From the NCBI GenBank assembly GCA_963775425.1, contig CAVZJB010000011.1, positions 320,001 to 384,000 of the forward strand: DNA of 64,000 nucleotides. Direction: 5' to 3'. Positions 47,752-63,833 of this stretch are shown here, one piece after another. The notes beneath the pieces are model-generated. The model was not told the origin of the DNA. It searched no databases and was given only the letters and a program-made list of their open reading frames with translations. The DNA comes from an uncultured delta proteobacterium (GTDB taxonomy: Bacteria > Myxococcota > UBA727 > VGSZ01). Every line of letters starts with the position of its first letter. Positions within the stretch are counted from its first letter, which is position 1. Both the position numbers and the translations under genes were made by a program.

Positions 47752-50700
47752 GTGCGCTCCCTCGCCGACGGACTCAGCGTCGCTCTCGACGTTCCGCGCT
47801 TCATCGCACGGCCCGCGCTGCGCGCCGCGTTGTGGCACGCGGTCTTCGTCGGCGCCGTCACCATCATCAAGAGCGGCACCAACGCGCTCTACCTCGCGCG
47901 CGAGGACCCCGCGCGCCTCCCGCTCCTGTACGTCGCCGTCGCCGTCGTCGTCCTCCTCGTCACCTCGGGGCTCGCCCGCCTCCTCGCGCGCCGCTCGCCC
48001 GCGCAGGTGCTCACCGTCGGCGTCATCGGCGCGGGCGTCGCCCTCATCGCAAGCACCGCCGCCGCCGCCGCCGGCCTCCCGGGCGCGGAGGCCGTCGTCT
48101 ACGTCGTCGGCGAGGCCGCCGCGACCACGGGCAGCGTCCTGTTCTGGGCCCGCGTGATGGACGCCTTCGCCGCGCGCGACAGCAAGAAGGTGGTCGGCCT
48201 CGTCGGCGCCGGCGGCATGTCGGGCGCCGCCGTCGGCGGCCTGCTCATTCGGCTCATCGCCGACAGCGCCGGCGTCGTCATCCCCATGATCGCCTCCGCC
48301 GTCGCCTTCATGGTCGCGCTGCCGCTCCTGCGCGCCCTCCGTTCGCGCGGGGAGCGCGTCGGCAGGAGCGACGCCGAGCTGCTCCCCGCGGTGCGCTACC
48401 TCGGCGGCCGCGGCTACCCCATCGCCGTCGCCACCCTCGTCGTGCTCCTCGCCGCCACCGGCGCCGCCACCGACTTCGTCTTCCGCACGGCCGTTGCGCA
48501 CGCGCACACGGAGACGGAGATGGCCGCGCTCTTCGGCACGCTGAACGCGGTGGTCGGCGTCGTCGTCGTGTTCTTCCAGGTGTCTTTGACCTCGCGCCTG
48601 CTGTCGCGCGTGGGCGTGTTCTCTTTCGTCGCCATCGTCCCCACGCTCCTCGTCGCCACCAGCGTCCTCGCCGTCGCGCTCCCCGGCGGCGGCTTCTCCA
48701 TCATCGTCGTCATGAAGGGCATCGAGATGGCCGGCGCCTACTCGCTCAACCAGACGGCGGTGTCGCTCCTGTACAACCCCATGCCCGGCGAGCTGCGCTC
48801 GCAGGTGCGCACGCTCATCGACGGCGCCATCAAGAAATCCGGGGCCGCCGGCGCCGGCCTCGTGCTCGGCGCCCTCGCCGCGTTCTTGCCGCTCCTCGTG
48901 GGGAGCTGGCTCGTGGCGCTGGCGGCCGGCGCCACGCTCGTGCTCTTGCCCATCCTGCGCACGCGCTACCTCGACGCCCTCGACGACAAGCTGGGCCAGC
49001 GAAAGAAGATCCGCCCGGGCCCCATCGATCCCTCGGACAAGGTCACGCGCACCGCGTTGCGCACCCTCCTGCTGGCGGACGACCCGGAGCGCGTGCTCGG
49101 CGCGCTCGGCGCGCTGGGGCCGCGCTACACGCTCACGACGGAGGAGATCGCGACGCTCGTCGAGAACAAGGACGAGCGCGTGCGCACCGCAGCGCTCAAG
49201 CACGTGCCGGTGGCGCCCGACGATGTGCTCACCGCGCGCCTCCTGCAGATCGCCAAGGCGCACGGGCCGCGACGTCCGCGGGCGGAGGCGGTGCGCGCCC
49301 TCGCGCGGCTGCAGGGCAAGAACGCGCCCGCGGTGATCGGGCAGTTCCTCGACGACGACGAGCCCGGCGTGGTGGCCGCCGCCCTCGAGGTGTCCTTGAA
49401 GGCGGCGCGCGACGCGGAGATCGAGCTCATCAAGGCGGGCGTCACCAACGACGACGAGGACACCATGACGGGCGCCCTCACCGCCAACATGCGCGCGCGC
49501 CACAAGCTCCAGAGCATCCTCGTCGACCTCCCCCAGCGCTCGCTCGCCTGGCGCCGCGAGATCGCTCGGCTCCTGGGGGCGCTCGACGACGCCCGCTACG
49601 ACGGCTTCCTCGCGCAGCTCATCGGCGACGACGACGCCACGGTTCGCTCGCTGGCCATCGACGCCGCCGGCCGCGAGCGCCACGCCGCCCACGTGCCCCT
49701 GCTCATCTCGCACCTCGGCGATCGGCGCGTGCGCGTGCAGGCGGCCCGCGCCCTCGCGCGCTACGGCGAGGACGGGGTGGAGCCGCTCAAGGCCGCCCTC
49801 GACGACCGCCAGCTCCCCTTGATGGTGCGCATCCACGTCCCCCGCGTCCTCGAGGCCGTGGGGACGGAGAGCGCGGCGCGCGCGCTCCTGTTTTCGAACC
49901 CCAGGGACGACGCCTACCTGCAGCAACGCATCGCGGCGTCGCTGGTGGGCATCGTCGCGTACGAGCCGGGGACCCCGGTGGACAAGAAGCGCACCGACGA
50001 GGCTATCGGGCGCCGCCTGGTGGCCTCCGCCGCGTACGACGACGCCCGCCGCGAGCTGGAGGCGGACCCGACGGCGGGGCTGTCGCTGCTGAAGCACGCG
50101 GTGCGCGATCGCTGTGCGCAAAACCTCAAGATCGCGCTCGACCTGCTCGGCATCCACCGCGGGCTCGCGCGCATGCAGACGGTGCACGCGGGGCTCGTGA
50201 GCGGCAAGGAGAGCGCCCGCCACGACGCCATCGAGCTGCTCGACGCGGCGCTCTCCGGGGACCCCCTGCGGGAAGATTTCCTGTCGCTTTTGGAGCGGAC
50301 CCCGAGGACGACCACGATCGATGACGCGCGCAAACGCGCGCTGAAGCTCTGTCGGTCCAAGGACCCCTTGCTGCGCGGCATCGCGCGCCGCACCATGCGC
50401 TTCCTCGGCGACGACTCGCCGGAGGTCTCGGGCACGTCGCCCGCCGTCGGCCCCGGCGCCGTGGAGCTCGAAGGAGAGGACATGCCCGAAAACCTCGTCG
50501 AGCGCCTGTTTCTCCTCGAGCACGTCGATCTGTTCGAGGGGCTGTCCACCGACGACCTCTCCGCCATCGCCTCCATCGCCACCGAGCACGCGCTGCCGGC
50601 GGGCTCGCCCCTGTACCAGGAGGGCGAGAGCGGCACCCAGCTCTACGTGATCATCGAGGGCGACGTGGAGCTGACGCGGGCGGGCCGCCACGTCATGAAG

Positions 50701-50952
50701 CTCCGGGCCGGCGAGAGCGCCGGGCAGGTGAGCTTCCTCGATCGCGGGCCGCGGCCGGTGACGGCGCGGGTGTCGGACAAGGCGCCGGCGCGGTTCCTCG
50801 TCGTCGAGCGCGACATCTTCATGGACCTGCTCGCCGACCGTCCGGGCTTGATGCACGCGTTCTTCGGGGTGCTCGCGGCCCGGCTGCGGACGCTCATCGA
50901 GCGCGACGCGGCGGACCCCGCGGGCCGGCGGCGGGTGCCTACATCCGTATAG
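47752..50952 (+). CDS. Npt/TLC-like (MFS fold) transporter fused to HEAT repeats and a cyclic-nucleotide-binding domain
   Basis: About 12 transmembrane helices with YSL......LLYNPMP..LR; HEAT repeats; C-terminal LFEGL...DL...LYQEGESG..LYVIIEG.V...G.VSFLD.GPRPVTA. Confidence 0.85.
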   Translation: MRSLADGLSVALDVPRFIARPALRAALWHAVFVGAVTIIKSGTNALYLAREDPARLPLLYVAVAVVVLLVTSGLARLLARRSPAQVLTVGVIGAGVALIASTAAAAAGLPGAEAVVYVVGEAAATTGSVLFWARVMDAFAARDSKKVVGLVGAGGMSGAAVGGLLIRLIADSAGVVIPMIASAVAFMVALPLLRALRSRGERVGRSDAELLPAVRYLGGRGYPIAVATLVVLLAATGAATDFVFRTAVAHAHTETEMAALFGTLNAVVGVVVVFFQVSLTSRLLSRVGVFSFVAIVPTLLVATSVLAVALPGGGFSIIVVMKGIEMAGAYSLNQTAVSLLYNPMPGELRSQVRTLIDGAIKKSGAAGAGLVLGALAAFLPLLVGSWLVALAAGATLVLLPILRTRYLDALDDKLGQRKKIRPGPIDPSDKVTRTALRTLLLADDPERVLGALGALGPRYTLTTEEIATLVENKDERVRTAALKHVPVAPDDVLTARLLQIAKAHGPRRPRAEAVRALARLQGKNAPAVIGQFLDDDEPGVVAAALEVSLKAARDAEIELIKAGVTNDDEDTMTGALTANMRARHKLQSILVDLPQRSLAWRREIARLLGALDDARYDGFLAQLIGDDDATVRSLAIDAAGRERHAAHVPLLISHLGDRRVRVQAARALARYGEDGVEPLKAALDDRQLPLMVRIHVPRVLEAVGTESAARALLFSNPRDDAYLQQRIAASLVGIVAYEPGTPVDKKRTDEAIGRRLVASAAYDDARRELEADPTAGLSLLKHAVRDRCAQNLKIALDLLGIHRGLARMQTVHAGLVSGKESARHDAIELLDAALSGDPLREDFLSLLERTPRTTTIDDARKRALKLCRSKDPLLRGIARRTMRFLGDDSPEVSGTSPAVGPGAVELEGEDMPENLVERLFLLEHVDLFEGLSTDDLSAIASIATEHALPAGSPLYQEGESGTQLYVIIEGDVELTRAGRHVMKLRAGESAGQVSFLDRGPRPVTARVSDKAPARFLVVERDIFMDLLADRPGLMHAFFGVLAARLRTLIERDAADPAGRRRVPTSV

Positions 50953-51031
50953 ATGAGACGCGAGGGCCGTCGGGTTTCCCATCCGCGCGGACTTGTGCGA
51001 AACCAGTGTCAGCTTCCGAGGGTGACGGGCG

Positions 51032-51745
51032 ATGACGACAGCGCGCGAGAAGCTCTACGAGGAGATGGTGGTCATCGTGGCCACGCCCGCGGGCCCCGGC
51101 GCCGACGCCGAGATGCGCAAGCTCATGTCGCGCTATCGCGTGCAGACCAAGCCCGGCGTCGACATCCCCCCCGGCACCACCGCGCGCGACGCGCTCGGTG
51201 AGCGCCTGCTCGGCTTGTGGCGATCGCCGCAGCCGGACCTGAACGCCAAGATCGGCAGCGCCATCGACGAGTTCCGCATGCAGCTCAAGTCGTCGTCGTC
51301 GCCGCCGTCGAAGGTGCCGCAGCCGAGCGCCGCGCGCCCGCGGCCGCCCGGGATGGGCCCGCCGGTGCCCGCCGTCGAGGACGACGACGATCGCCGCGCT
51401 CCCGCGCCGTCCGCGCCGCCGCCGCGCAACGACGGCGCGCGCGCGCCCGTGGCCGCGCTCGGCGTCGGCGACCCTCCGCCGCCGGCGCCCGCCGCGCGCA
51501 GGCCCGGACGCGCCGTCGCCGAGCCCGTCGCCGGCGGTCCGCGCAAGCGAGGGCGCACACGCGGCGAGTGCCCGAAGTGTCACTCGATGGGCGTCGTCCT
51601 CGCGCGCAGCTACTCCGGTGACGAGTACTTCAGCTGCATCTACTGCGGCTGGCAGGCATACAAGCCCACCGAAGACGACGATCCCAACGCCTCTCTCGCC
51701 GTCCGCTTGCTCGGCCAGTCGCCCAGCGAGACCTCGCGCGACTGA
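51032..51745 (+). CDS. Hypothetical protein with Pro-rich linker and C-terminal zinc ribbon
   Basis: CPKC...CIYCG motif. Confidence 0.75.
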   Translation: MTTAREKLYEEMVVIVATPAGPGADAEMRKLMSRYRVQTKPGVDIPPGTTARDALGERLLGLWRSPQPDLNAKIGSAIDEFRMQLKSSSSPPSKVPQPSAARPRPPGMGPPVPAVEDDDDRRAPAPSAPPPRNDGARAPVAALGVGDPPPPAPAARRPGRAVAEPVAGGPRKRGRTRGECPKCHSMGVVLARSYSGDEYFSCIYCGWQAYKPTEDDDPNASLAVRLLGQSPSETSRD

Positions 51746-51791
51746 GCGCTCCCGACGTAGTCTCTGCTCGCACGACGACGAGGAGAGGCTC

Positions 51792-53210
51792 ATGGCTCGC
51801 GGAGGACGTCCGCTCACCGCCGAATCCCTGACGGAGGAGATCCGCTTCCTCCTCAAGACGCTGATGCGCGACGACCTCTTCGGCGAAGAGGTGTCGCTCA
51901 CCGAGGCCGAGAAGCTCCTCGAGAGCTCGCTGTCCGTGGGCTTCGTCGAGTACTGCGCGTTCCTCAAGCGCCACGCCTACGTCGACATCGACCGCGGCCG
52001 AAACACCATCGCCGCGCTGCCGCGCGGAAAGAACGTCGCCGAGGGCGGCAGCGATCCCTCGCTCACGCCCACGCTCGCGGCGCACTTCAGCAAGCAGCTC
52101 GACGGCGCCAAGATGCACGTCCTCGTGGCGCGAGACGAGCCGCGCGTGGTCGCCGTCTCCGAGGGGCGCTCCGATCACGCGCGCTCGGAGCGCTCCGTGC
52201 CCAAGCCGGCGTCGGCCGGCATCGTCCCCGGCCAGCAGCCCGTGTCCATCGCGCTCGACGCCATCGCGGTCGAGCGCTACCCGCTCGGCGAGGCCATCGG
52301 GCAGGGGAGCCTGGGCCCCGTGTATCGCGCCCGCGACAGCGTCCTCGAGCGCAACGTCGTCGTGAAGGAGGTGCGGCACATCTACGAGCTGGTGACGTAC
52401 CTGCCGCGTGAGGAGCTCAGCAAGCGCGTGCGCGACGCGGTCATGGCGCAGGCCAAGCTCGATCACCCGCACATCCTGCGCGTCCTCGACGTCAACTTCG
52501 TCGGCGACTACCCGACCATCACGCTCGAGCGCGCCGTCGGCGGCTCGCTGCGCGACCGCATGACGCGCGGGCCGCTGCCGGTGCCCGTGGTGCTTCGACT
52601 CATCTTGCAGGCGAGCTACGGCCTGCACCACGCGCACCGCCACGGCGTCATCCACGCGGGCATCAAGCCGGAGAACGTGCTGTTCGACGCCGCCGGCAAC
52701 GTGCGCCTCGCGGACTTCGGGCTCGCGCGCGCCGCGGAGCGCTTGTCCGACGACACCACCAGCGCACCGCCGGTCTACATCGGCAACGGCAACCCGAGCT
52801 ACATGGCGCCGGAGCAGCTCCACCGCGCCCAGGTCGGCAAGGCCGCCGACGTCTACGCGCTCGGCATCCTGTTGTACGAGCTGTTGACGGAGACGCTGCC
52901 CGGCCGCCGCTCGCCGATGCCGTCGTTGACGCCGCGGGTCGCGGAGGCGCTCGGCGGCCCCGGCTCCCGCGCCGTCGACGACCTCTTCGACAGGATGACC
53001 CGCGACCCCGTCTCGGAGCGCTTCCCTGACTTCGACGAGGTCCTCGCGGCGCTCTACGCCTGTCTGCCCGAGGGCGGCAGCCTCGGCCGCGGCACGCTCT
53101 TGCTCTACGAGGAGGACCCGATGCCGCCCGGTCCGCTCTCCGCCGAGGGCGAGGCCGTCCAGGAGGTCACCGCCACCGACGGCGAGATGCCGCCGGGGGC
53201 GTCGGCGTAG
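51792..53210 (+). CDS. Cytoplasmic Ser/Thr kinase-like protein (probable pseudokinase) with an N-terminal domain of about 100 aa
   Basis: GQGSLG, VVVKE, DFG and YMAPEQ motifs, but the catalytic loop reads HAGIKPEN; AGGAG ribosome binding site. Confidence 0.85.
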   Translation: MARGGRPLTAESLTEEIRFLLKTLMRDDLFGEEVSLTEAEKLLESSLSVGFVEYCAFLKRHAYVDIDRGRNTIAALPRGKNVAEGGSDPSLTPTLAAHFSKQLDGAKMHVLVARDEPRVVAVSEGRSDHARSERSVPKPASAGIVPGQQPVSIALDAIAVERYPLGEAIGQGSLGPVYRARDSVLERNVVVKEVRHIYELVTYLPREELSKRVRDAVMAQAKLDHPHILRVLDVNFVGDYPTITLERAVGGSLRDRMTRGPLPVPVVLRLILQASYGLHHAHRHGVIHAGIKPENVLFDAAGNVRLADFGLARAAERLSDDTTSAPPVYIGNGNPSYMAPEQLHRAQVGKAADVYALGILLYELLTETLPGRRSPMPSLTPRVAEALGGPGSRAVDDLFDRMTRDPVSERFPDFDEVLAALYACLPEGGSLGRGTLLLYEEDPMPPGPLSAEGEAVQEVTATDGEMPPGASA

Positions 53211-54428: not shown

Positions 54429-57400
54429 CTATTGGACGTTCGTGGTCATGTCGTAGAAGTTGTCGCCATCGTCGAGGAACTCGTGGACCTCGACGAAGTA
54501 GTCGCCGGCCGTCGTCACCGCGAAGTCGATGTCCTCGGTGCCGTCGGTGCCGAGGCTGCTCGCGACCTGCGTGCTGCTGCCGGGGCCGTACAGGCGGATG
54601 TCGATGTCCTTGTCGCTCGAGTGCACGTAGTCGACATGCACCACCACGTGTTTTCCGGCCGCCACCGACTTCAAGACGAAGAAGTCGTGGTCCCCGGGGC
54701 AGATGCGCATGTTCGCGAACGACTCCGGCGACGTGGTGGACAGCTCCGTGGCCTCGGTGGTGACGTCGTCGTTTCGGAACGTTTCGTCGGTGGTGGTGGA
54801 GGTGGTGGCGCTCCACGTGTCGAAGCGATCGTTCACGCACGACGATGCCGGTGGGTCGTCGAGGGTGATGCCGATGCCGTAGGGCTCCGGCGTGCTGCGG
54901 AAGCCCTCGGCCATGATGAGGTACGTCCCCGCCTGGTTGATCATCCCCGACACGCGGTCCTGCTTGTTGGTGGCGAACGAGCGGGCGAGCGTGCGCGTGA
55001 GTCCCGACGTGCCCTTGGGCTCGAGCACGCCCACGTCGACGTCGTCGGCGGGATCGAACGCGAGCTGCACGGTGACGAGCTTGTCCGCCGGCAGCGCCAC
55101 CGAGAACCAATCCTGATCGAACTGGGCGCACGACATCAAGGCGCCCACCTCGTAGCTGCCGTCCTGAAGACCGGTGGCGTCGAGGGCGAACGCATCCACG
55201 GCGCGCTCGTTGGGGTCGGCGCCGTCGTCGACGCAGCGGCCGTCGCCGGGGGTGATGGAGGGCGTGAGCGTGTAGGCGATGCGGTCCGCGCTTCCACCGG
55301 TGACGCGCAGCGCGTAGCGGCCCGCGGGGAGCCCCGAGGCCTGGATGCGCCGGTTGCCGCCGCTCGCGGTGTCGTTGCGCGCGACGCTGCCGTCGGTGGC
55401 CGACACCAGCGAGAACGTCAGGCCGTCCCCCGCGAGCACGGCGTCGAGGGAGTCGCCGCTTTGCAGCTTCAACAGGTAGAAGTCGTCGTCGCCGGGGCAG
55501 CGCACCGCCGACAGCGCGTTTCCGCCGATGGGCGTGGCGCGCGACACGGCGTTGTTGTCCTCGAAGCCGTCGTCGGGCGAGCAGCCCTGCAGCGTGGCCT
55601 CCATGGTGTACGTGTTGAGCGCGCCGGAGAAGCCGAAGATCTCCGCGGTGTACGTGCCGGCGTCGAGCTGCCGCACGATGATCTCGTCGTCGGTGACGCT
55701 CACCGACGACGTGACGGTGCCGCCGGCGGCGTCCACGAGGCGCATGTCGAGGTCGCCGTTCGCGTGGGTGAAGCGCGCGTGGACCGTCACCGTCGACTGA
55801 AACGGCAGCGTGAACGTGAAGAAGTCGGTGTCGTCGGCGCAGACGCGGCCCGCGAGCGGCGTGCCGTCGAGCCCCAGCGTGCGCGGGGCCGCCAGCGAAT
55901 CCGGCTCGATGCCGCCCTCGTCGCACGGATCGGGCACCGGCTCCGGCGTGAGCGTGACACGCACGGTGTAGCTGGTCTGCGTCGACGCGCTCGAGCCTTG
56001 CACGACGACGCGGTAGCCGCCCGCGACGAGGTCGGGGGCGCTCATCGTGGTGCCGGTGGCGATCTGCGCGCCGTCCGACGCGCGCACGAGCCGGGCCGTG
56101 ACGTTCGACCCCGTCACCGTGATGGCCGCGTCGTCGAGGGCGGCGGCGGCGAAGCGGAACTGGTCGACGTCGCCGGGGCAGATGGTGCCGCTCGCGGGCG
56201 TGCCGGGCTGAAGCGACAGCGCCTGGGCGTCGGTGTCGTTGGGCTCCGCGTCGGTCTGGTTGCACACGGGCGGCGACGCCGTGGCGTTCACCCGCACCGA
56301 GTACGTGATGTCGCCGCCGGTGGCGGAGACGCGGGCGAAGTACGCGCCCGCCGTGACGCCTGCGAGCGTGGCCGGCTGGCCTGCCGCGGGCGCGGTGGCG
56401 AGGACGTTGCCGTTTGCGTCGAGGAGCGAGAGCGCCAGCGTGCCGGCGCCGTCGCCGGGGACCACCGCCGCTTCGACGTTGTCGCCGGCGGCGGCGGTGA
56501 AGCGGAAGAGGTCGACGTCGGTGCCGCAGATGGCGCCGGAGTGCAGCGCGTCGTCGGCGGCGATGGAGACGGCGGCGCCGGTGGTGTCGTTGGGCTCGGC
56601 GTCGAGCTGCGTGCACGTGCTCGGCGCGCTGACGTCGACTGAGAGCAGGTAGTCGGCGTTGGCGTCGGCACCGTCGCCGCGGACGATGAGGCGGTACTGG
56701 GCCTGGGCGAGATCGGGCGCGGTGAGCGAGAGCGTGTCGTCGTTCACGGGAGTGGCGGTGGCGATGACGCCGCCGCCGGGGCCCTCGAGGACGAGCGTCA
56801 GCGGGCCGGCGCCCTGGACGGTGAGCGTGGCGACGACGGTCCCCGCGGCGTCGACGAGGAACTCGTCGATGTCGCCGGGGCAGATGGCGCCCTCGTGCGC
56901 GCCGCCGGAGGCGATGGGCAGGGCGTCGAGCCCGTCGTTGGGCTCGCTGGCGTCGTCGTCGGTGCAGCCGGCGACGCAGGTGTTGGTGGTGGTGTCGCAA
57001 ACGCCGCTCGCGCAGTTGGCGGGCCCAAGGCACTCGACGCAGACGCCGCGGCCGGGATCGCAGACGCCGTCGATGCAGTCGTCGTCGGTGGCGCAGCTCT
57101 GGGTGGTGGTGCAGGTGGAGGTGGCCTGGTTGCACAGGGCGCCGCCGGCGCAGTCGCCGTCGCTCAAGCACTCGACGCAGCCGCCCTTGATGGTGTCGCA
57201 GTGCTGGCCGCCGCTGCAGTCGCCGTCGGTGGAGCAGCCCTGCACGGGATCGACGCAGTCGTGGGAGAACGCGTTGCAGACCTTGCCCGGGTCGCAGTCG
57301 TCGCTGGTGAGGCAGTCGACGCAGCGCCCGCTCTCCTCGTCGCACAAGCCCTGGAGGCAGCCGCTGCCCGCCGTGCACGGCGCGACGCAGGCGCCGTCCT

Positions 57401-57551
57401 GGCAGACGTCGGGAGCCGCGCAGGGCTGGTTGACGTCGTCGCACGCCTTCCCGTCACCGGGCTGGACGTTGGAGGGGTCGCAGGCGGCGACGACGATCCC
57501 GAGGAGGGCGGCGGCGCAGACGGAGAGGGCGAGGCGTGCGGAGTCGATCAC
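54429..57551 (-). CDS. Large Cys-rich lipoprotein with about seven PPC-like (pre-peptidase C-terminal) repeats
   Basis: Lipobox VAAC; CVECL..DC repeats; seven C..D..EPND...ICPGD.D.F modules; DLDMRL/DIDIRLY motifs; the start may be 57584. Confidence 0.85.
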   Translation of the reverse strand: MIDSARLALSVCAAALLGIVVAACDPSNVQPGDGKACDDVNQPCAAPDVCQDGACVAPCTAGSGCLQGLCDEESGRCVDCLTSDDCDPGKVCNAFSHDCVDPVQGCSTDGDCSGGQHCDTIKGGCVECLSDGDCAGGALCNQATSTCTTTQSCATDDDCIDGVCDPGRGVCVECLGPANCASGVCDTTTNTCVAGCTDDDASEPNDGLDALPIASGGAHEGAICPGDIDEFLVDAAGTVVATLTVQGAGPLTLVLEGPGGGVIATATPVNDDTLSLTAPDLAQAQYRLIVRGDGADANADYLLSVDVSAPSTCTQLDAEPNDTTGAAVSIAADDALHSGAICGTDVDLFRFTAAAGDNVEAAVVPGDGAGTLALSLLDANGNVLATAPAAGQPATLAGVTAGAYFARVSATGGDITYSVRVNATASPPVCNQTDAEPNDTDAQALSLQPGTPASGTICPGDVDQFRFAAAALDDAAITVTGSNVTARLVRASDGAQIATGTTMSAPDLVAGGYRVVVQGSSASTQTSYTVRVTLTPEPVPDPCDEGGIEPDSLAAPRTLGLDGTPLAGRVCADDTDFFTFTLPFQSTVTVHARFTHANGDLDMRLVDAAGGTVTSSVSVTDDEIIVRQLDAGTYTAEIFGFSGALNTYTMEATLQGCSPDDGFEDNNAVSRATPIGGNALSAVRCPGDDDFYLLKLQSGDSLDAVLAGDGLTFSLVSATDGSVARNDTASGGNRRIQASGLPAGRYALRVTGGSADRIAYTLTPSITPGDGRCVDDGADPNERAVDAFALDATGLQDGSYEVGALMSCAQFDQDWFSVALPADKLVTVQLAFDPADDVDVGVLEPKGTSGLTRTLARSFATNKQDRVSGMINQAGTYLIMAEGFRSTPEPYGIGITLDDPPASSCVNDRFDTWSATTSTTTDETFRNDDVTTEATELSTTSPESFANMRICPGDHDFFVLKSVAAGKHVVVHVDYVHSSDKDIDIRLYGPGSSTQVASSLGTDGTEDIDFAVTTAGDYFVEVHEFLDDGDNFYDMTTNVQ

Positions 57552-57614
57552 CGCCGCATTCGACCGCGCGCGGAGGCCGGCCACCCTCGGTAGAAGATCC
57601 GACCCCGTCGACGG

Positions 57615-57760
57615 GCTGATCAGCGACCGGAGGGAGCGGCCGCGCTGATCAGCGACCGGAGGGAGCGGCCGCGCTGATCAGCGACCGGAGGGAGCCGGCC
57701 GCGCTGATCAGCGACCGGAGGGAGCGGCCGCGCTGATCAGCGACCGGAGGCAGCGGCCGC
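57615..57760. repeat. Five tandem copies of a 29-bp unit GCTGATCAGCGACCGGAGGGAGCGGCCGC
   Basis: Units start at 57615, 57644, 57673 (one extra C), 57703 and 57732 (one mismatch); no spacers. Confidence 0.95.
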
Positions 57761-58480
57761 CACGAGGGCGGCGTAGATGGCGCGCTGGGCGGGCTCGCGC
57801 ATGGCCTCGGGGTGCCACTGGACCGCGACGAAGAACCGCAGCTTCGGATCCTCGAAGGCCTCGACGACGCCGTCGGCGGCGCGCGCGCTCTCGACGAGGC
57901 CGGGCGCGAGCGCCTTCACGGCCTGGTGGTGCGTGCTGTTGACCGGCAGCCGGTCGGGCCCGCCGGCGGCGGAGACCAGCGCGCGCAGGCGCGTGCCGGG
58001 GCTGAGCGCGACGTCGTGGCAGGGCTCGTCCTTCCGGCCCTTCTGGCTGTGACCGGCGTTGTCCGGCTTTTGCGCGTCGAGGTCCTGCCACAGCGTGCCG
58101 CCGCGGACGACGTTCATGAGCTGCATGCCGCCGCACACGCCGAGCACCGGGATGCCCTTGTTCTCCGCGCGCACGAGCAGGCCCCACTCGAGCGCGGTGC
58201 GCTCCGGCAGGAGCTTGCCGAGCGCTTCGTGCGGCTGCTCGCCGTAGTGCGCCGGGTCGACGTCGAAGTCGCCGCCCGGGAGCACGAGCGCGTCCGCGAG
58301 CGCCACGAGCTGATCGAGCGCGCCCGCGTCGTCGACGATGGGCGGGATGAGCGGGAGCCCGCCGGCCTCGAGGATGGCGTCGGCGTACTCGCGCTGGCTC
58401 ACCAGACGCGGCTGCGGACCGCGCCTGGTCTCCTGGGTCTCGAGGTCGGGCGGCAGAAGGACGACGGGGCGGCGGCTCAC
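57737..58480 (-). CDS. Gamma-glutamyl-gamma-aminobutyrate hydrolase family (peptidase C26, PuuD-like)
   Basis: LPGG.FDVDP..YG, LGVCGGMQLMNV, VNSTHHQAV and VQWHPE motifs. Confidence 0.93.
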   Translation of the reverse strand: MSRRPVVLLPPDLETQETRRGPQPRLVSQREYADAILEAGGLPLIPPIVDDAGALDQLVALADALVLPGGDFDVDPAHYGEQPHEALGKLLPERTALEWGLLVRAENKGIPVLGVCGGMQLMNVVRGGTLWQDLDAQKPDNAGHSQKGRKDEPCHDVALSPGTRLRALVSAAGGPDRLPVNSTHHQAVKALAPGLVESARAADGVVEAFEDPKLRFFVAVQWHPEAMREPAQRAIYAALVAAAASGR

Positions 58481-58580
58481 GCGCCGAATCTATCCCCGCG
58501 GCGCGGGCGCCGTCACCGTCCTCGCCGCCCGCCGCGCTCCGGCAAACGACGCGGCCGAGCGCTTCGACTATCGTCGCGCG

Positions 58581-61500
58581 ATGTTCCGCTCCGTGGGCGT
58601 GAAGGCGGCGTTCCTCTTCGGGAGCGGCTTTTGCGCGCTCGTGTACCAGACGATGTGGTTGCGCGCGCTGCGCACGGTGTTCGGGGCGTCCACGCCGGCG
58701 AACGCGGCGGTGCTGTCGGTGCTCCTGGGCGCCTTCGCCGTCGGCAGCGCCGTCTTCGCGCGCCGCGCGGAGCGAACGTCGCAGCCGCTCAGGCTCTATG
58801 CCCGCCTCGAGATGGGCGTCGCGGCCTCCGCCGCGCTCTCCCCGTTCCTCGTCGATGGCGTGCGCGCCGTGTATCTGGCGCTCGGCGGCTCCACCACGCT
58901 CGGCGCCGGCGCCACCGCCGCGCGGCTCGTGCTCTCCGTCTTCGCCCTCGGCGTGCCCGCCGCGCTCATGGGCGGGACGTTCCCGGCCATGGCCCGCGCC
59001 GCCGGCGACGCCGCGCGGGAGACGCGCAAGCCGCTCGCGCTCTTTTTCGGCGCGAGCACGCTCGGGGCCGTCGTGGGCGCGGCCGCATCGACCTTCGCGC
59101 TCCTCGAGATCTATGGCGTGCGCCGCTCGATCTGGATCGCGTGCGCCGCCAACGCGCTCGTCGCCGTCGTCGCGCGCAACCGCGCCAGATCGTCACGGCC
59201 CGTCGCCGCGATGCCGCGCCCCGAGGGAGGCGCCCCGCGGGCGCGGCGGCTCTTCGTCCTCGTGGCGGCGTTCCTCACGGGCCTCTCGTTCCTCCTGCTC
59301 GAGCTCGTCTGGTACCGCTTGAGCGCGCCGCTCCTTGGCGGCTCCGCGTACACCTACGGCATCGTCGTCCTGCTCGCGCTCTTCGGTGTCGGCGCCGGCG
59401 GCCTCGCCTTCGCGTTCTTCGGTCCGCGCCGGCCGACGCCCGCGGGCTTCGCCGTCACCTGCGCGCTCGAGGCCGCGCTGGCCCTCGTCCCCTACGCGCT
59501 CGGCGACGACCTCGCGCGGCTCGCGTACTTCTTGCGTGCGCTCGCGAGCCCGGCGCTGTCCTCCATGGTCGCCGGCCAGGCCGTGCTCGCCGCCATCCTC
59601 GTGGTGCCGCCGGCCCTCGTCGCAGGGTGGCAGTTCCCGTCGCTGCTCTCCCTCGCGGGGGACGGCATCGAGGGCGCCGCCGTCGACAGCGGCGACGTCT
59701 ACGCCAGCAACACCGCCGGCTCGCTCCTCGGCGCCCTCGCCGGCGGGCTCGGGCTGTTGCCGCTCCTGTCGGCGCCCGGCGCGTGGAAGCTCGCGGCGCT
59801 CCTCCTCGTCGGCGCCGGTCTGTTCGCGGCCACGCGCCCGCGCGTTTCGTCGCCCGCTGAGCGCGCGCGCGTGGTCGCGTTCGCCGCGTTGGCGCTGGTG
59901 ACGACGTCGTTGGCGTTCGCGACCGGGCCCACCGCGCTGTGGCGGCAGTCCGGTGTCGGCGCCGGCCGCGCGCACCTGTGGGCCGAGACGTGGAACGACC
60001 TGCACGCGCTCACGTACGACGCGCGCCGCTTGACCGACCAGCGGGAAGGCCTGGAAGCAGGGCTCGGCTTTCGCACCATGGCCACGCACGGCGAGGCGCT
60101 CCTCGTGAACGGCGCGTCCGACGGCGCCACGTTCGGCGACGAGGGCACGCACGTGGGCCTCGGCCTGGTGCCCGCGCTCATCCATGGCGCGCCCAAGCGC
60201 GCCCTCGTCCTGGGGCTCGGCACGGGGCAGACGGCGGGGTGGTTGGCGGCCGTGCCGACCATGGAGCGCGTCGACGTCGCCGAGGTCGAGCCCGCGCTGC
60301 TCGACTTCGCCGCGCGCACCGCGCTCACCAACAAGGACGTGATGCACGACCGCAAGGTGAACATCGTGGTCGCCGATGGCCGCGAGGCGTTGGCGACGTC
60401 GAAGGGCGGCTACGACCTCATCGTGAGCGCGCCCTCGAGCGCGCCCCGCGCAGGCCTCGCCGGATTGTCCGCGCTCGAGCTCTACCAGACGGCGCGCGGA
60501 AAGCTCGCGCCGGGGGGCATCTTCGCGCAGTGGATGCCGGCGGATGCGGTCGACCTGGCCACGATGGAGACGGTGCTGGCGACGTTGTCGGCGGTGTTTC
60601 CCGACGTCACCATCTTCCGCCTCGGGCCCGGCGACGTCTTGTTGCTCGGCCGCACCTCCAAGGCGCCCCTCGACGTGCCGCGCCTGCGCGTGACGCTCGC
60701 GCGCGAGCCGTATCGTTTCTTCGTCGAGCACATGTTGTGGCAGACCGACGTCGAGGGCCTGCTGTCGCGCGTCTGCGGCAACGACGCGTTCGTGCACCGC
60801 CTCGCGGCGCGCGCGGGGGGCATGAGCACCGACAATCGGCCCGCGCTCGACAACGGCGTCCGCCGGAGCCTCGCCGACGCGTTCGACGAGATGCGCACGC
60901 AGAGCCGCCTGCTCGGCGAGGACCTGCCCGCGCTCAGCGAGCCCGTGGACCGCGCCGCCGTCGACCGGCAGGCGGGGCGCGTCTACACCGCGGAGGGCTC
61001 GCCGGCGCCGCAGGGCGTGGGCGATCCCGTCGAGCGCGCGTGGGCCGCCAGGCAATACGCGAGGGCGGCGGCGCTCGCCGCGACGCGGCCGGCACACGAC
61101 AGCGTCGGCGCGCTCATCCGCGCCCACGCCGGCGCCGTCGGCGGGGGCCGCCCCGCGGCCGGCGACCTCGACGCGCTCGTCGCCGCCGGCTTCGCCACCG
61201 ACGTCGCCTTCATCCGCGTCGACGCCGCCGTCACCGACGGCGACGGCGCGCACCTGCCCGCGCTCGTCGACGCGGCGGTGGCGGCGCTCGCGCGCGATCC
61301 GTGGGTGAACCAGGTGATCCTCGCGAGCGTCCTCGAACGGGTGCCGCGCGCGGCCATGTCACCGGAGCAAGCCCTCGCCGTGGCGCGGTCCCTCTCGACG
61401 CCGCTGCCCGGCAAGGCCGCCTTCGTCGCCCGCGTGACGTGCGTCCACGAGCTGCTCATGCGTGCGCCCGCGTCGATGCCCGGCTGGTGCGCCGGCGTCT

Positions 61501-61664
61501 ACGGCTCCATCGAGCCGGACCCGCTGTGGACGGAGTCGTGGCTGCGAGGCCGCGCCGCCTGCTACAGCACCCACGACGCCGCGCGCGTCGGTGGCGCGCG
61601 CGCCGACCTCGCCGCGTTCCTCGCGCACCAGGCGCCGACGCTGAAAGACGCCCTGGCACCTTGA
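58581..61664 (+). CDS. Fused membrane (MFS-like)/spermidine synthase-like protein
   Basis: SGFCALVYQ..W, MGGTFP and YASNTAGS transmembrane region; LVLGLGTGQT, EVEP, DGRE, YDLI and GIFAQW motifs. Confidence 0.88.
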   Translation: MFRSVGVKAAFLFGSGFCALVYQTMWLRALRTVFGASTPANAAVLSVLLGAFAVGSAVFARRAERTSQPLRLYARLEMGVAASAALSPFLVDGVRAVYLALGGSTTLGAGATAARLVLSVFALGVPAALMGGTFPAMARAAGDAARETRKPLALFFGASTLGAVVGAAASTFALLEIYGVRRSIWIACAANALVAVVARNRARSSRPVAAMPRPEGGAPRARRLFVLVAAFLTGLSFLLLELVWYRLSAPLLGGSAYTYGIVVLLALFGVGAGGLAFAFFGPRRPTPAGFAVTCALEAALALVPYALGDDLARLAYFLRALASPALSSMVAGQAVLAAILVVPPALVAGWQFPSLLSLAGDGIEGAAVDSGDVYASNTAGSLLGALAGGLGLLPLLSAPGAWKLAALLLVGAGLFAATRPRVSSPAERARVVAFAALALVTTSLAFATGPTALWRQSGVGAGRAHLWAETWNDLHALTYDARRLTDQREGLEAGLGFRTMATHGEALLVNGASDGATFGDEGTHVGLGLVPALIHGAPKRALVLGLGTGQTAGWLAAVPTMERVDVAEVEPALLDFAARTALTNKDVMHDRKVNIVVADGREALATSKGGYDLIVSAPSSAPRAGLAGLSALELYQTARGKLAPGGIFAQWMPADAVDLATMETVLATLSAVFPDVTIFRLGPGDVLLLGRTSKAPLDVPRLRVTLAREPYRFFVEHMLWQTDVEGLLSRVCGNDAFVHRLAARAGGMSTDNRPALDNGVRRSLADAFDEMRTQSRLLGEDLPALSEPVDRAAVDRQAGRVYTAEGSPAPQGVGDPVERAWAARQYARAAALAATRPAHDSVGALIRAHAGAVGGGRPAAGDLDALVAAGFATDVAFIRVDAAVTDGDGAHLPALVDAAVAALARDPWVNQVILASVLERVPRAAMSPEQALAVARSLSTPLPGKAAFVARVTCVHELLMRAPASMPGWCAGVYGSIEPDPLWTESWLRGRAACYSTHDAARVGGARADLAAFLAHQAPTLKDALAP

Positions 61665-61703: not shown

Positions 61704-62978
61704 TCAGCGCGGGGCGGCGGCGAACGCGAGCGACATCCGGCGGCACATGAAGCGCGGGTCGTCGACGTCGAGGGCGCTGACGGCGGCGACGAGCCGGGCG
61801 CCGGCGCGGGCGCAGTCGGCGACGCGCCCCGGTGTCGTCACGCCACCGATGGCGACGACGGGGAGCGGTGCGAGCTTCGTTCGCCGCGCCAGCGCTTCGA
61901 GGCCGACCACGGGCGCGTGCCCCGACTTGGTCGGGGACGCGAACACCGGCCCGACCGCGACGAGGTCGGCGCCGCCGTCGGCGCACGCGTCGAGCAGCTC
62001 GGGCTCGGTGTGGCTCGAGGCGCCGACGAGCGCGTCCGCGCCGACGATGCGGCGGGCGAGCTTGGGCGGCATATCGGTCTGGCCGACGTGCACGCCGTCG
62101 GCGTCGGCGGCGACGCACAGATCGGGGCGATCGTTCACGATGACGGGGACGCCGTACGGCCGGCACCGCGCCAGGAGCGGCTCGAGCAACGCGAGCACGT
62201 CGCGGTCGGCGAAGCCCTTGGCGCGCAACTGCACCATCGCCACGCCCCCCTCGACGAGGGCCGCCGCGCGCCGCTCGAGCTCGTCGAGGAGGGCTTGCGC
62301 CTCGACGCGATGCACGGGGCTCGACAACAACGGCACGGCGCCGTGCGCCGTCGACGACGGCTCCGCGTGCGGCGCCACCACGGCGTACAGGCCCGCCGGC
62401 ACGCGAGCGGCGGGCGGCGCGAGCGACGCGGGGAGCGGCTTCTTCTGCGCGCGGCACGCGGCGCGCATCCCGTCGTCGAGCGCCTGGACCAGGCCGGGCG
62501 TCGACGCGCCGCGCGCGAGAGGGACCACGTGCGCGAGCGTCTCTTCGACGTACGCGTCGAGCTTGTCGCGGCTCGGCGCGAGGTGGAGCTCGCCGAGGTT
62601 GTGCAGGCGATCGCACACCTTCACCAGGCGCAGCGCGTCGTCGGCGCCGTCGGCGAGGCGCGCGTAGTACGCCGCGGTGGCCTCGGGCCCCTTGCCGGTC
62701 TTGGTCAACAGCTCCACGCGCCGCGTGACCTCGGCGCCGAACCGCGCGCGCAGCTCGGCCGCGTCGATGCCGACCTCGTTGTCCTCGAGGACGTCGTGCA
62801 AGAGCGCCGCCGCCCGTGTGACGTCGTCGACGGCGATGCCGCACGCGGGCCCGACGTCGTCGATGAGCGTGCGCACGGCCTCGGGGTGGCGGATGTACGG
62901 CGCCCCGTGTCGTCGCGTCTGGCCGTGGTGCGCTTCGTACGCGATGGCGCGCGCTCGCTCGAGAGGGATGGCCTCCAT
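61704..62978 (-). CDS. thiE: RelA/SpoT-type HD hydrolase (Mesh1/SAH-like) fused to thiamine-phosphate synthase
   Basis: N-half AH.GQ.R..G.PYI.HP, AALLHDVLED, LLTK, VKVCDRLHNL; C-half VQLRAK, IVNDR, GVHVGQTD, GASSH, GPVF.SPTK, VAIGG. Confidence 0.9.
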   Translation of the reverse strand: MEAIPLERARAIAYEAHHGQTRRHGAPYIRHPEAVRTLIDDVGPACGIAVDDVTRAAALLHDVLEDNEVGIDAAELRARFGAEVTRRVELLTKTGKGPEATAAYYARLADGADDALRLVKVCDRLHNLGELHLAPSRDKLDAYVEETLAHVVPLARGASTPGLVQALDDGMRAACRAQKKPLPASLAPPAARVPAGLYAVVAPHAEPSSTAHGAVPLLSSPVHRVEAQALLDELERRAAALVEGGVAMVQLRAKGFADRDVLALLEPLLARCRPYGVPVIVNDRPDLCVAADADGVHVGQTDMPPKLARRIVGADALVGASSHTEPELLDACADGGADLVAVGPVFASPTKSGHAPVVGLEALARRTKLAPLPVVAIGGVTTPGRVADCARAGARLVAAVSALDVDDPRFMCRRMSLAFAAAPR

Positions 62979-62981
62979 GTG

Positions 62982-63728
62982 TCAGCCGCCGCCGATGAGT
63001 CGGCGCGCGTTGCGCTCGTGCGCGGCGCGGAACGCTTCGAGCGCGCGGATGTCCCGGAACCCGTCGACGCCGAGGGTGCGCCAACCGAAGAAGTCCGCGG
63101 GGTCCTGGAAGGAGACGCCGAGGTTCTGCGCGAAGAGGCGGTCGGCGTCGGAGTGGTCGTCGCCGCGCTCGCCGTCGGGCTCGATCTCCCTCCTGGTGTA
63201 CGCGGAGTCGCCCACCATGAACGAGTGCTTCTTGTCGATGACCGCGTGGTCGCCGAAGGTCTCCTTGAGGAAGGTCTCCAGAGACAGCGCCATCCCCACC
63301 GCGGGCTTTCGGTGAGAGTCCTTCCTCTCGGCGAAGTCGACCCAATGGACGTCGCCGCCGCCCTTGCGGATGAGCTCCACGGTCTCTTCGAGCGCGGCGT
63401 CGGCGTCCTCGAGGGAGATCCTGCCGGCGGAGACGCCGGCCTGGTTGGAGACGATGGCGATGAGGTAGCCCTCGCGGCTCAGGCGCCCGAGGGTGCGCGC
63501 GACGTTCGGCAGGAGCGCGACGTCGCCGGGGCCGTCGGCGGTGGCGCCGCCCGAGAGCGCGACGCGCAGCGTGGCGTCGGCGTCGAAGAAGGCGACCTTC
63601 ACGGGCCCCTTCCCGGGCGCCAGGTAGGTGGCGGCGAGCCTGCGACGGGCGAGGCCGTCGACGGCGCCCGCGGACGGGCGGGTCGGGACGTCGGCGACGA
63701 CGTGGGGTGCCAGGCGATCGATGCGCAT
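62982..63728 (-). CDS. HAD subfamily IIIA phosphatase, polynucleotide 3'-phosphatase (PNK3P)-like
   Basis: FFDADATL, IVSNQAG, RKP..GM, SFMVGD and DHSDADRLFAQNLGVSF..P..FF motifs. Confidence 0.85.
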   Translation of the reverse strand: MRIDRLAPHVVADVPTRPSAGAVDGLARRRLAATYLAPGKGPVKVAFFDADATLRVALSGGATADGPGDVALLPNVARTLGRLSREGYLIAIVSNQAGVSAGRISLEDADAALEETVELIRKGGGDVHWVDFAERKDSHRKPAVGMALSLETFLKETFGDHAVIDKKHSFMVGDSAYTRREIEPDGERGDDHSDADRLFAQNLGVSFQDPADFFGWRTLGVDGFRDIRALEAFRAAHERNARRLIGGG

Positions 63729-63833
63729 GCGAGGTCTCCGCACAGGACGATAGCCCATCCCCGCGGGCCGCCGGCGCTCACCGGGCGCAGGCGAGGTTTG
63801 GCACCGCCCCACGTCGTGGCTAAGGTCCCGCCC

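Follow-up and report, generated by a model that had tools for sequence, protein, structure and literature searches.

The genome of an uncultured delta proteobacterium (GTDB lineage Bacteria; Myxococcota; UBA727; VGSZ01) encodes a protein in which a hydrolase domain of the RelA/SpoT homologue (RSH) type is joined in frame to thiamine phosphate synthase, ThiE. The gene lies on contig CAVZJB010000011.1 of NCBI GenBank assembly GCA_963775425.1, in a stretch of 64,000 nucleotides (positions 320,001 to 384,000 of the forward strand) that is referred to here as the window, and the coordinates given below count from its first nucleotide unless another contig is named. This is a real, conserved and uncharacterised joining of two known kinds of domain, an architecture that would be unexpected for the RSH field and one of narrow taxonomic range. 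On balance, and with modest confidence, we favour the reading that the product is one bifunctional enzyme, acting as the ThiE of its lineage and as an active RSH-type hydrolase whose most likely substrates are (p)ppGpp and/or (p)ppApp, with the two domains rigidly docked and allosteric cross-talk between them plausible.

Small alarmone hydrolases (SAHs) are widespread, yet their physiological roles and regulation are largely obscure; in vitro their activity seems to be constitutive, and additional layers of regulation call for investigation (PMC9293644). A conserved and, by prediction, rigidly packed fusion of an SAH-type domain with ThiE, an enzyme that makes an essential cofactor, can be regarded as a natural experiment in this respect, which would point either to a new input into, or regulator of, alarmone turnover or to a new class of substrate for the RSH fold, and which gives a tangible entry point to SAH regulation or substrate range. 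A protein-level connection between the stringent response and thiamine metabolism would come with it, in a lineage that is seemingly without the usual thiamine pyrophosphate (TPP) riboswitch.

Architecture of the fusion protein

The fusion gene is a single open reading frame (ORF) of 424 amino acids plus stop at 61704..62978 on the minus strand, with its ATG at 62976-62978 and its stop codon at 61704-61706 in the ORF list of the window, and the motifs HHGQTRR (residues 17-23), PYIRHP (27-32), HDVLED (61-66) and KVCDRLHN (120-127) can be read in its translation. In Pfam, HD_4 (PF13328) matches residues 9-153 with 44 bits against a cut-off of 27.2 (E 2.5e-11; profile positions 1-148 of 156) and TMP-TENI (PF02581) matches residues 231-403 with 166 bits against a cut-off of 27 (E 7e-49). 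Among the NCBIfam models, the thiE profile TIGR00693 gives 154.7 bits on the C-terminal half, over its equivalog cut-off of 145.1, and the spoT_relA profile TIGR00691 aligns with residues 11-156 over its N-terminal ~150 positions only. The Pfam and NCBIfam scores of both halves are far above chance level, and sequence comparison with solved structures relates the C-terminal half to the ThiE proteins of Mycobacterium tuberculosis and Bacillus subtilis and the N-terminal half to the hydrolase domains of Rel/SpoT and to MESH1. A preliminary description of this DNA had reported a single 424-residue ORF with hydrolase motifs and a ThiE C-terminal half, with which the ORF, its translation and the two profile libraries agree; its proposal that an RSH-type HD domain is fused in frame to ThiE is likewise borne out by both profiles lying above their cut-offs and by a reading frame that runs unbroken through the junction, with neither stop nor shift.

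Within the ORF, for which a whole-chain AlphaFold2 model was made, the RSH-type HD (HD_4) hydrolase domain takes up residues 1-160 (62499..62978, minus strand), as delimited by PF13328, by alignment to Thermus thermophilus Rel (6s2t/7ohg), by conservation and by fold matches to 7ohg, 6s2u and 5vxa. It is followed at 62403..62498 by a post-HD helix (residues 162-177, consensus GLVAAL.DA.R.A.RAQG) and a short, variable, proline-rich linker (residues ~178-192), both defined from the model and the alignment. The ThiE TIM barrel occupies residues 193-424 (61707..62402), as supported by PF02581, TIGR00693, alignment to 3o15/2tps, Foldseek and the predicted interface. Inside its first beta-alpha unit is a loop (residues ~201-220; 62319..62378) that was recognised from the gap pattern of the alignment (columns 301-330) and from its low predicted local distance difference test (pLDDT) values; in the 44-row alignment of fusion proteins this loop is longer in the source genome than in its relatives.

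Distribution and origin of the fusion

A search with the whole protein among 5.8 billion clustered proteins gave 236 matches at E <= 1e-5 among 8000 scored candidates, 120 of which were listed. In at least 50 other protein clusters PF13328 and PF02581 occur together, with identities of 35-63% and lengths of 355-472 aa (50 of the best 51, P0002-P0052); the exception among these, P0032, is a fragment of 302 aa from a contig of 1 kb. When the HD half (residues 1-190) was compared with 1.84 billion representatives, 13 of the 14 best rows were again HD_4 plus TMP-TENI proteins, and the remaining row (P0122) joins HD_4 to a cytochrome c554 domain. Four named records contain the fusion, and each bears the title of a Deltaproteobacteria or Myxococcota metagenome-assembled genome (MAG).

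Among 401 sampled genomes of the phylum, a match across both halves was seen only in two families of the same Myxococcota order, the organism's own family (f1) and a second one (f6), and in all other families it was limited to residues ~230-422. Within the 38 genomes of the order, a fused HD domain in intact frame is present in the source genome (G000) and in G084, G026, G120, G125, G131, G137 and G151. Eight of ten relatives in the own family have the fusion, seven with the frame intact and one with it interrupted, as do both genomes of f6 (G149 and G141), giving 10 of 12 relatives for the two families combined. In G129, an assembly of about 1270 contigs, the frame is broken inside the HD half; no fused copy was found in G069 (94% complete, about 700 contigs); and G074 has an orthologous ThiE without the HD half (L046, G074:C3 1975-2634), preceded by a different gene of 204 aa. 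A weak, separate HD_4 match was also noticed in G074, in a 248-aa ORF at C77:11806-12204. In families f2-f5, again across the 38 genomes, only the HD domain of the long RSH was detected, and these sister families showed no unfused, adjacent pair of SAH and thiE genes.

The trivial explanation, that an assembly or sequencing artefact has joined two separate genes, has nothing in its favour beyond the frame break in the fragmented G129 assembly. The frame is continuous in 50 other clusters drawn from several data sources, in nine relatives' genomes and in the four named MAG records, and because the same frame and architecture recur in independent assemblies an artefact is untenable, its probability being in our judgement negligible. 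The sequencing error about which the preliminary description had been cautious can be put aside for the same reason, and its other concern, that relatives might always encode two separate genes, does not apply either, since most relatives encode the fused form.

The origin of the fusion was approached through an alignment (A1) of 44 fusion proteins including the source protein, in which full-length identity between members goes down to 34%, and through a tree of 64 ThiE sequences, in which the 44 fused halves were joined by 18 stand-alone copies of other Myxococcota genomes, by the copy of G074 and, as outgroup, by the paralogue from the organism's own genome. In this quick IQ-TREE search all 44 fused ThiE halves formed one clade (Shimodaira–Hasegawa-like approximate likelihood ratio test, SH-aLRT, 95), with the G074 copy and a long-branched copy from G113 nested within it. 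We regard the fusion as old. The tree is consistent with a single origin, after which the HD half was lost at least once, and the position of the G074 copy inside the fused clade indicates, as far as such a tree can, secondary loss or fission of that half. A single fusion event in an uncultured Myxococcota lineage would then have been followed by displacement of the stand-alone ThiE there.

The ThiE half and the thiamine pathway

The ligand-binding and catalytic residues of the ThiE half are Q250, R252, K254, N282, D283, D302, S321, S348, T350 and K351, which correspond in that order to Q57, R59, K61, N92, D93, D112, S130, T156, T158 and K159 in the alignment with B. subtilis ThiE (3o15), with Ser in place of Thr at S348, together with G378-G379. 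The list of ligand and Mg residues and its numbering are those of the 2tps literature. All of the mapped positions are invariant or at least 90% conserved in the 44 fusion proteins, and Foldseek comparison of the C-terminal half with 2tps, 3o15, 3o63 and 1xi3 gave a probability of 1.00 with TM-scores by target (TMt) of 0.75-0.85 (0.77-0.84 for 2tps and 3o63).

The source genome (8.26 Mb, 18 contigs, 94.55% complete) contains only two TMP-TENI matches, the fusion and one paralogue. The latter, a 230-aa ORF that immediately follows thiC and is close to thiG, belongs to a thiG-thiC cluster outside the window (G000:C11:492319-495686; loci L002 and L049); it scores 79.5 bits against the thiE cut-off of 145.1 and has His and Thr, and no Asp, at the two Mg-binding Asp positions of ThiE. 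Neither protein passes the TenI profile NF005819 (cut-off 251), with 65.8 bits for the fusion and 25.2 bits for the paralogue. The thiC-adjacent paralogue is no ThiE and, by exclusion, probably a TenI-like tautomerase; it is likely misnamed ThiE in annotations, and the name should be avoided for it. In five of five relatives compared in the same way (G084, G026, G120, G149 and G074) the thiE cut-off was passed only by the fused copy, or by its orthologue in the case of G074, and each of the five has one TMP-TENI paralogue below the cut-off. As the fused copy alone passes the thiE cut-off, the fusion would be the thiamine-phosphate synthase of the lineage, and its C-terminal half, the only thiE-grade copy of the organism, appears to be its working ThiE. 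The reaction would be the Mg2+-dependent joining of hydroxymethylpyrimidine pyrophosphate (HMP-PP) and thiazole-phosphate to give thiamine monophosphate (TMP) and pyrophosphate.

ThiC, ThiD, ThiG and ThiL are present in the source genome, ThiL above its cut-off, and TPK_catalytic was not found in this 94.55%-complete assembly. With ThiL present and TPK not found, the pathway does not need a TMP phosphatase step, and a role for the HD half as a TMP phosphatase feeding a TPK route was set aside on these grounds. An Rfam scan of the whole window returned 0 matches, with no riboswitch or known RNA near the fusion. The TPP riboswitch (RF00059) was found in 11 of the 38 genomes of the order, including the fusion-bearing G149, and in none of the source genome and the 10 other f1 genomes, an absence that is unproven given that 76 candidates were scored per larger genome.

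The hydrolase half

The hydrolase domain of RSH proteins is described by six motifs, with Arg in HD1, His in HD2, His-Asp in HD3, Glu-Asp in HD4, Asp-Arg/Lys in HD5 and Asn in HD6; the HD1 Arg and HD6 Asn hold the guanine base, HD2, HD3 and HD5 hold a Mn ion, and the Glu-Asp of HD4 is proposed to carry out the nucleophilic attack (PMC9293644). All six are found in the fusion, as R22 (HD1), H31 (HD2), H61-D62 (HD3), E65-D66 (HD4), D123-R124 (HD5) and N127 (HD6), and align one-to-one with those of T. thermophilus Rel. None of the 43 other fusion proteins has lost H61, D62, E65, D66, D123, R124 or N127, and R22 and H31 are retained in 41, the remaining two having gaps there. Because the motifs are kept across the fusion proteins, the catalytic machinery of the HD half is held to be under purifying selection, and the strict conservation of its catalytic residues argues that this half is in use. 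The preliminary description had left room for one half being inactive, which seems not to be the case, since the catalytic residues read from the sequence are intact in both. The N-terminal half would accordingly be named a catalytically competent, Mn2+-dependent RSH hydrolase domain of the SAH type, which would most likely strip the 3'-pyrophosphate from (p)ppGpp and/or (p)ppApp.

Two further positions, both in the shell of the pocket, are signatures of the fusion family. H24 is found in 39 of 43 fusion proteins, at a position that is Ser in 13 of 19 long RSHs and variable among short HD_4 proteins, and E130 in 42 of 43, where 14 of 19 long RSHs have Thr. The equivalent residues of RelSeq, S46 and T151, support the HD1 Arg or the guanine (PMC9293644).

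In pairwise comparison the HD half scores 65.2 bits with T. thermophilus Rel, against 50.9 and 47.7 bits with MESH1 (3nr1/5vxa), so that the label 'Mesh1-like' given in the preliminary description finds no specific support, with the reservation that these are pairwise scores and not subfamily hidden Markov models. Among non-fused proteins, those closest to it in sequence are HD_4 proteins of various kinds, some stand-alone and some tandem, the stand-alone ones of 150-260 aa scoring 85-92 bits. Proteins of unusual architecture also occur close to the HD half (P0152, P0122, P0132, P0134, P0150, P0156 and P0158), several of them with two HD_4 stretches; P0152 combines a PfkB kinase with HD_4, and P0122 is the cytochrome c554 protein mentioned above. 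In the source genome itself a single long RSH combines HD_4 with RelA_SpoT, and beyond it and the fusion no HD_4 or synthetase domain was found. As this long Rel-type protein is the only other RSH of the genome, the fused HD would be its sole extra alarmone hydrolase. Recent duplication of the hydrolase domain of the organism's own Rel was considered as a source of the fused HD and rejected, the two domains being only 36% identical (50.8 bits).

Predicted structure and domain interface

AlphaFold2, run on the 44-row alignment A1, gave a model of the whole chain with a mean pLDDT of 95.4 and a predicted TM-score (pTM) of 0.94, in which the only stretch of low confidence is the loop of the ThiE half (mean pLDDT 70 for residues 201-210 and 67 for residues 211-220). 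A Foldseek search of the Protein Data Bank (PDB) found no entry that spans both halves (TM-score by query, TMq, <= 0.44); the C-terminal half matched ThiE, TenI and THI6, and the N-terminal half matched T. thermophilus Rel (7ohg, 6s2u) and MESH1 (5vxa). When the protein was cut at 190/191 and folded as two chains, each with its own part of A1, the interface score ipSAE was 0.91 in three of three runs, against 0.00 for the best of three controls. The ipSAE mark is one that 116 of 157 solved complexes and 2 of 215 mismatched pairs reach, and is a rough guide here, as a custom alignment was used. Contacts agreed to at least 97% between the split-chain runs, with a partner pLDDT of at least 88.

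On the HD side, the split-chain model places residues 34-46 (helix 2), 125/129/132 and the conserved post-HD helix (160-179) in the interface, and on the ThiE side residues 242-245, 274-275, 383-390 and 410-423, the last of these in the C-terminal helix (408-421 in the model). Residues 125/129/132 point away from the catalytic side of the HD5/HD6 helix, and the predicted interface contains none of the catalytic residues of the two halves. The two halves are thus predicted to form an integrated, rigidly packed unit and not beads on a string, in which the C-terminal helix of ThiE would pack on HD helix 2 and the post-HD helix, beside the helix that bears HD5 and HD6. Channelling of a substrate between the active sites was considered and is unsupported, the interface being free of catalytic residues. 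Because the interface sits away from both active sites, any coupling of the domains would probably be allosteric, with ligand occupancy in one domain tuning the other.

Relation to known systems

Compared with characterised ThiE proteins (TIGR00693; 2tps/3o15, 3o63), the C-terminal half of the fusion shares a score above the equivalog cut-off, the TIM barrel and all of the ligand and Mg residues, and the protein differs in having ~190 extra N-terminal residues, the lineage-specific loop at ~201-220 and a C-terminal helix that serves as a predicted docking surface. The N-terminal half has HD1-HD6 and the all-helical fold in common with both the SAHs (RelH of Corynebacterium glutamicum, 7qoc; PaSAH, 6yvc; MESH1, 3nr1/5vxa) and the long Rel/SpoT proteins (6s2t, 7ohg, 1vj7). 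SAHs are small, single-domain proteins (PMC3153485), and the fusion, whose hydrolase domain is joined to a 232-residue ThiE, is not an SAH by architecture; its HD half may rather work like an SAH domain attached to ThiE.

The likeness to the long RSHs goes further, in that an HD domain is followed by a helical connector and by a second catalytic domain, one that binds nucleotide or phosphate, packed onto it (HD-SYNTH). In Rel, the hydrolase is turned on or off according to whether the second domain is occupied (PMC9293644). The fusion has the ThiE barrel in place of the synthetase and no TGS or ACT domains, and has His and Glu where the long RSHs back up the guanine pocket with Ser and Thr. 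A comparable switch in it is hypothetical.

Other fusions of ThiE are known, namely Nudix + ThiE-like (NF006530), ThiE+ThiM (THI6, 3nl2), ThiE/ThiD (NF007070), and ThiE+ThiD2 or Clp_N+ThiE+ThiD2 (PF17792, PF02861). There is no RSH or HD_4 partner among them, and on the models of such fusions the present protein scores 80 against 245 and 81 against 761. ThiE is thus often found in fusions, and in the Nudix + ThiE-like arrangement a nucleotide pyrophosphohydrolase likewise stands N-terminal to it; the 'Nudix family hydrolase' profile NF006530 (315 positions) aligns to the ThiE half of the fusion over its positions 145-312.

No description of an HD_4–ThiE fusion was found in the full-text literature, a search to which subscription journals were out of reach, in keeping with the preliminary description, which knew of no characterisation of it. 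Nor was any direct link between ppGpp and thiamine found among the papers listed; in the supplements of PMC7229694, thiamine phosphate synthase figures only as an occasional flanking gene of RelP. The source databases currently call the fusion proteins just 'thiamine phosphate synthase', a name that conceals the presence of a hydrolase domain.

Possible functions of the fusion

Several points weigh against a bifunctional ThiE and alarmone hydrolase with coupled domains. The alarmones, although the most likely substrate, are assigned from the conservation of motifs only, and H24 and E130 may mean that the base pocket is tuned differently, with a non-canonical base specificity. The interface is a matter of model confidence and no measurement. 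No neighbour of the fusion points to thiamine or alarmones, the conserved one being a C26 hydrolase without known tie to either (see below), and the gene is ~110 kb from the thiG-thiC cluster. As G074 kept its ThiE without the HD half, ThiE can evidently do without this half, and the joining of the two could be an accident of co-expression that is nearly neutral under selection. Beyond what can be read from the protein itself, we infer the substrate of the HD domain, the coupling between the domains and the physiological purpose of the fusion, and for each of these the alternatives deserve to be set out.

RSH hydrolases cleave a diphosphate ester from an alcohol near an aromatic base, a chemistry that resembles HMP-PP or thiamine diphosphate, and in Schizosaccharomyces pombe a Nudix domain is fused to thiamin diphosphokinase. 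The HD domain might act on a phosphoester or pyrophosphate of thiamine metabolism and not on alarmones, as a homeostasis or 'damage pre-emption' hydrolase carried by ThiE, with thiamine di- or triphosphate, adenosine thiamine triphosphate, HMP-PP and damaged or analogue forms as candidate substrates. Rosetta-stone logic, by which fused domains usually belong to the same pathway, speaks for this, as do the H24/E130 signature, which is unlike that of the long RSHs, the precedent of NF006530, in which a pyrophosphohydrolase is fused to a thiamine enzyme, and the activity of MESH1 on NADPH (title of PDB entry 5vxa), which means that the fold is not limited to alarmones. We nevertheless regard it as rather unlikely, since the purine-coordinating R22 and N127 are retained (in 41 of 43, with two gaps, and in 43 of 43), no TMP phosphatase step is required where ThiL is present and TPK not detected, breakdown of HMP-PP beside the enzyme that consumes it would be futile, and the active sites are not brought together by the predicted interface. 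In a bolder version, the HD domain may hydrolyse starvation signals derived from thiamine, either its triphosphate or adenosine thiamine triphosphate; we know of no bacterial hydrolase for these.

The two activities could also be fully independent, an SAH gene having been joined to a housekeeping gene by intergenic loss with nothing gained but co-expression. The loss of the HD half from G074 with retention of ThiE would fit, together with active sites that lie outside the predicted interface, a range of only two families of one order, and a gene that stands outside any thi operon with no riboswitch found in the window. Set against these are the retention of the fusion down to 34% full-length identity, the conservation of the post-HD helix and the ThiE C-terminal helix, the predicted interface (ipSAE 0.91 versus 0.00 for the best control; pTM 0.94) and the sister families of the order, where only long RSHs and no unfused, adjacent SAH-thiE pair were seen, and on these grounds we hold independence to be unlikely. 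A purely sensory HD domain, in which binding of alarmone without catalysis switches ThiE on or off, would make sense of a rigid predicted interface beside the HD5/HD6 helix and of a family (f1) in which no TPP riboswitch was detected and some other control of thiamine is plausible; it is, however, very improbable in view of H31, H61, D62, E65, D66 and D123, which are invariant or nearly so, as would not be expected of a pure binding module. In RelA, by comparison, the inactive HD domain has diverged (PMC3153485).

The preferred reading, of an active alarmone hydrolase docked on ThiE, also has a more specific form, which we consider distinctly doubtful. Here the ThiE barrel would stand in the place of the synthetase of long Rel/SpoT proteins as a ligand-sensing switch, so that the supply of thiamine precursors (HMP-PP, thiazole-phosphate, TMP) directly sets alarmone levels, or the alarmone gates thiamine synthesis. 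If true, vitamin B1 synthesis would be regulated through the protein itself in a family without a detectable TPP riboswitch.

Gene neighbourhood

Upstream of the fusion, on the same strand, is a gene for a HAD-IIIA/PNK3P-type phosphatase of 276 aa with an Arg/Pro-rich N-terminal extension (62982..63812, minus strand; PF08645, and TIGR01662 over its cut-off), whose stop codon lies 3 nt before the ATG of the fusion. With this 3-nt spacing the two genes are probably co-transcribed here. The phosphatase was considered as a conserved partner of the fusion and rejected, as it stands beside the fusion in 0 of 11 relatives' loci and the adjacency is specific to the source genome.

A gene for a peptidase C26 or class-I glutamine-amidotransferase-like hydrolase (57737..58480, minus strand; PF07722; best NCBIfam match gamma-glutamyl-GABA hydrolase, below cut-off) is by comparison well conserved, following the fusion immediately in 8 of 11 relatives' loci and overlapping it by 4 nt in L017. 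The next gene after it encodes a PPC-domain protein of 1051 aa (54429-57584, minus strand), and a PPC-domain protein of ~1050 aa belongs to the conserved string of fusion and C26 genes in six of the eight such loci. In the window, the fusion and C26 genes are separated by a gene on the opposite strand for a spermidine-synthase-like membrane protein of 1108 aa (58338-61664, plus strand; domain at residues 610-758, from the ORF list and Pfam), the true start of which is probably later, because the listed start overlaps the C26 gene.

Further along the window, 48007-53210 encodes a 981-aa protein with MFS-like, HEAT-repeat and cyclic-nucleotide-binding parts and a 530-aa Ser/Thr protein kinase. 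Each of them is typical of signalling-rich myxobacterial genomes.

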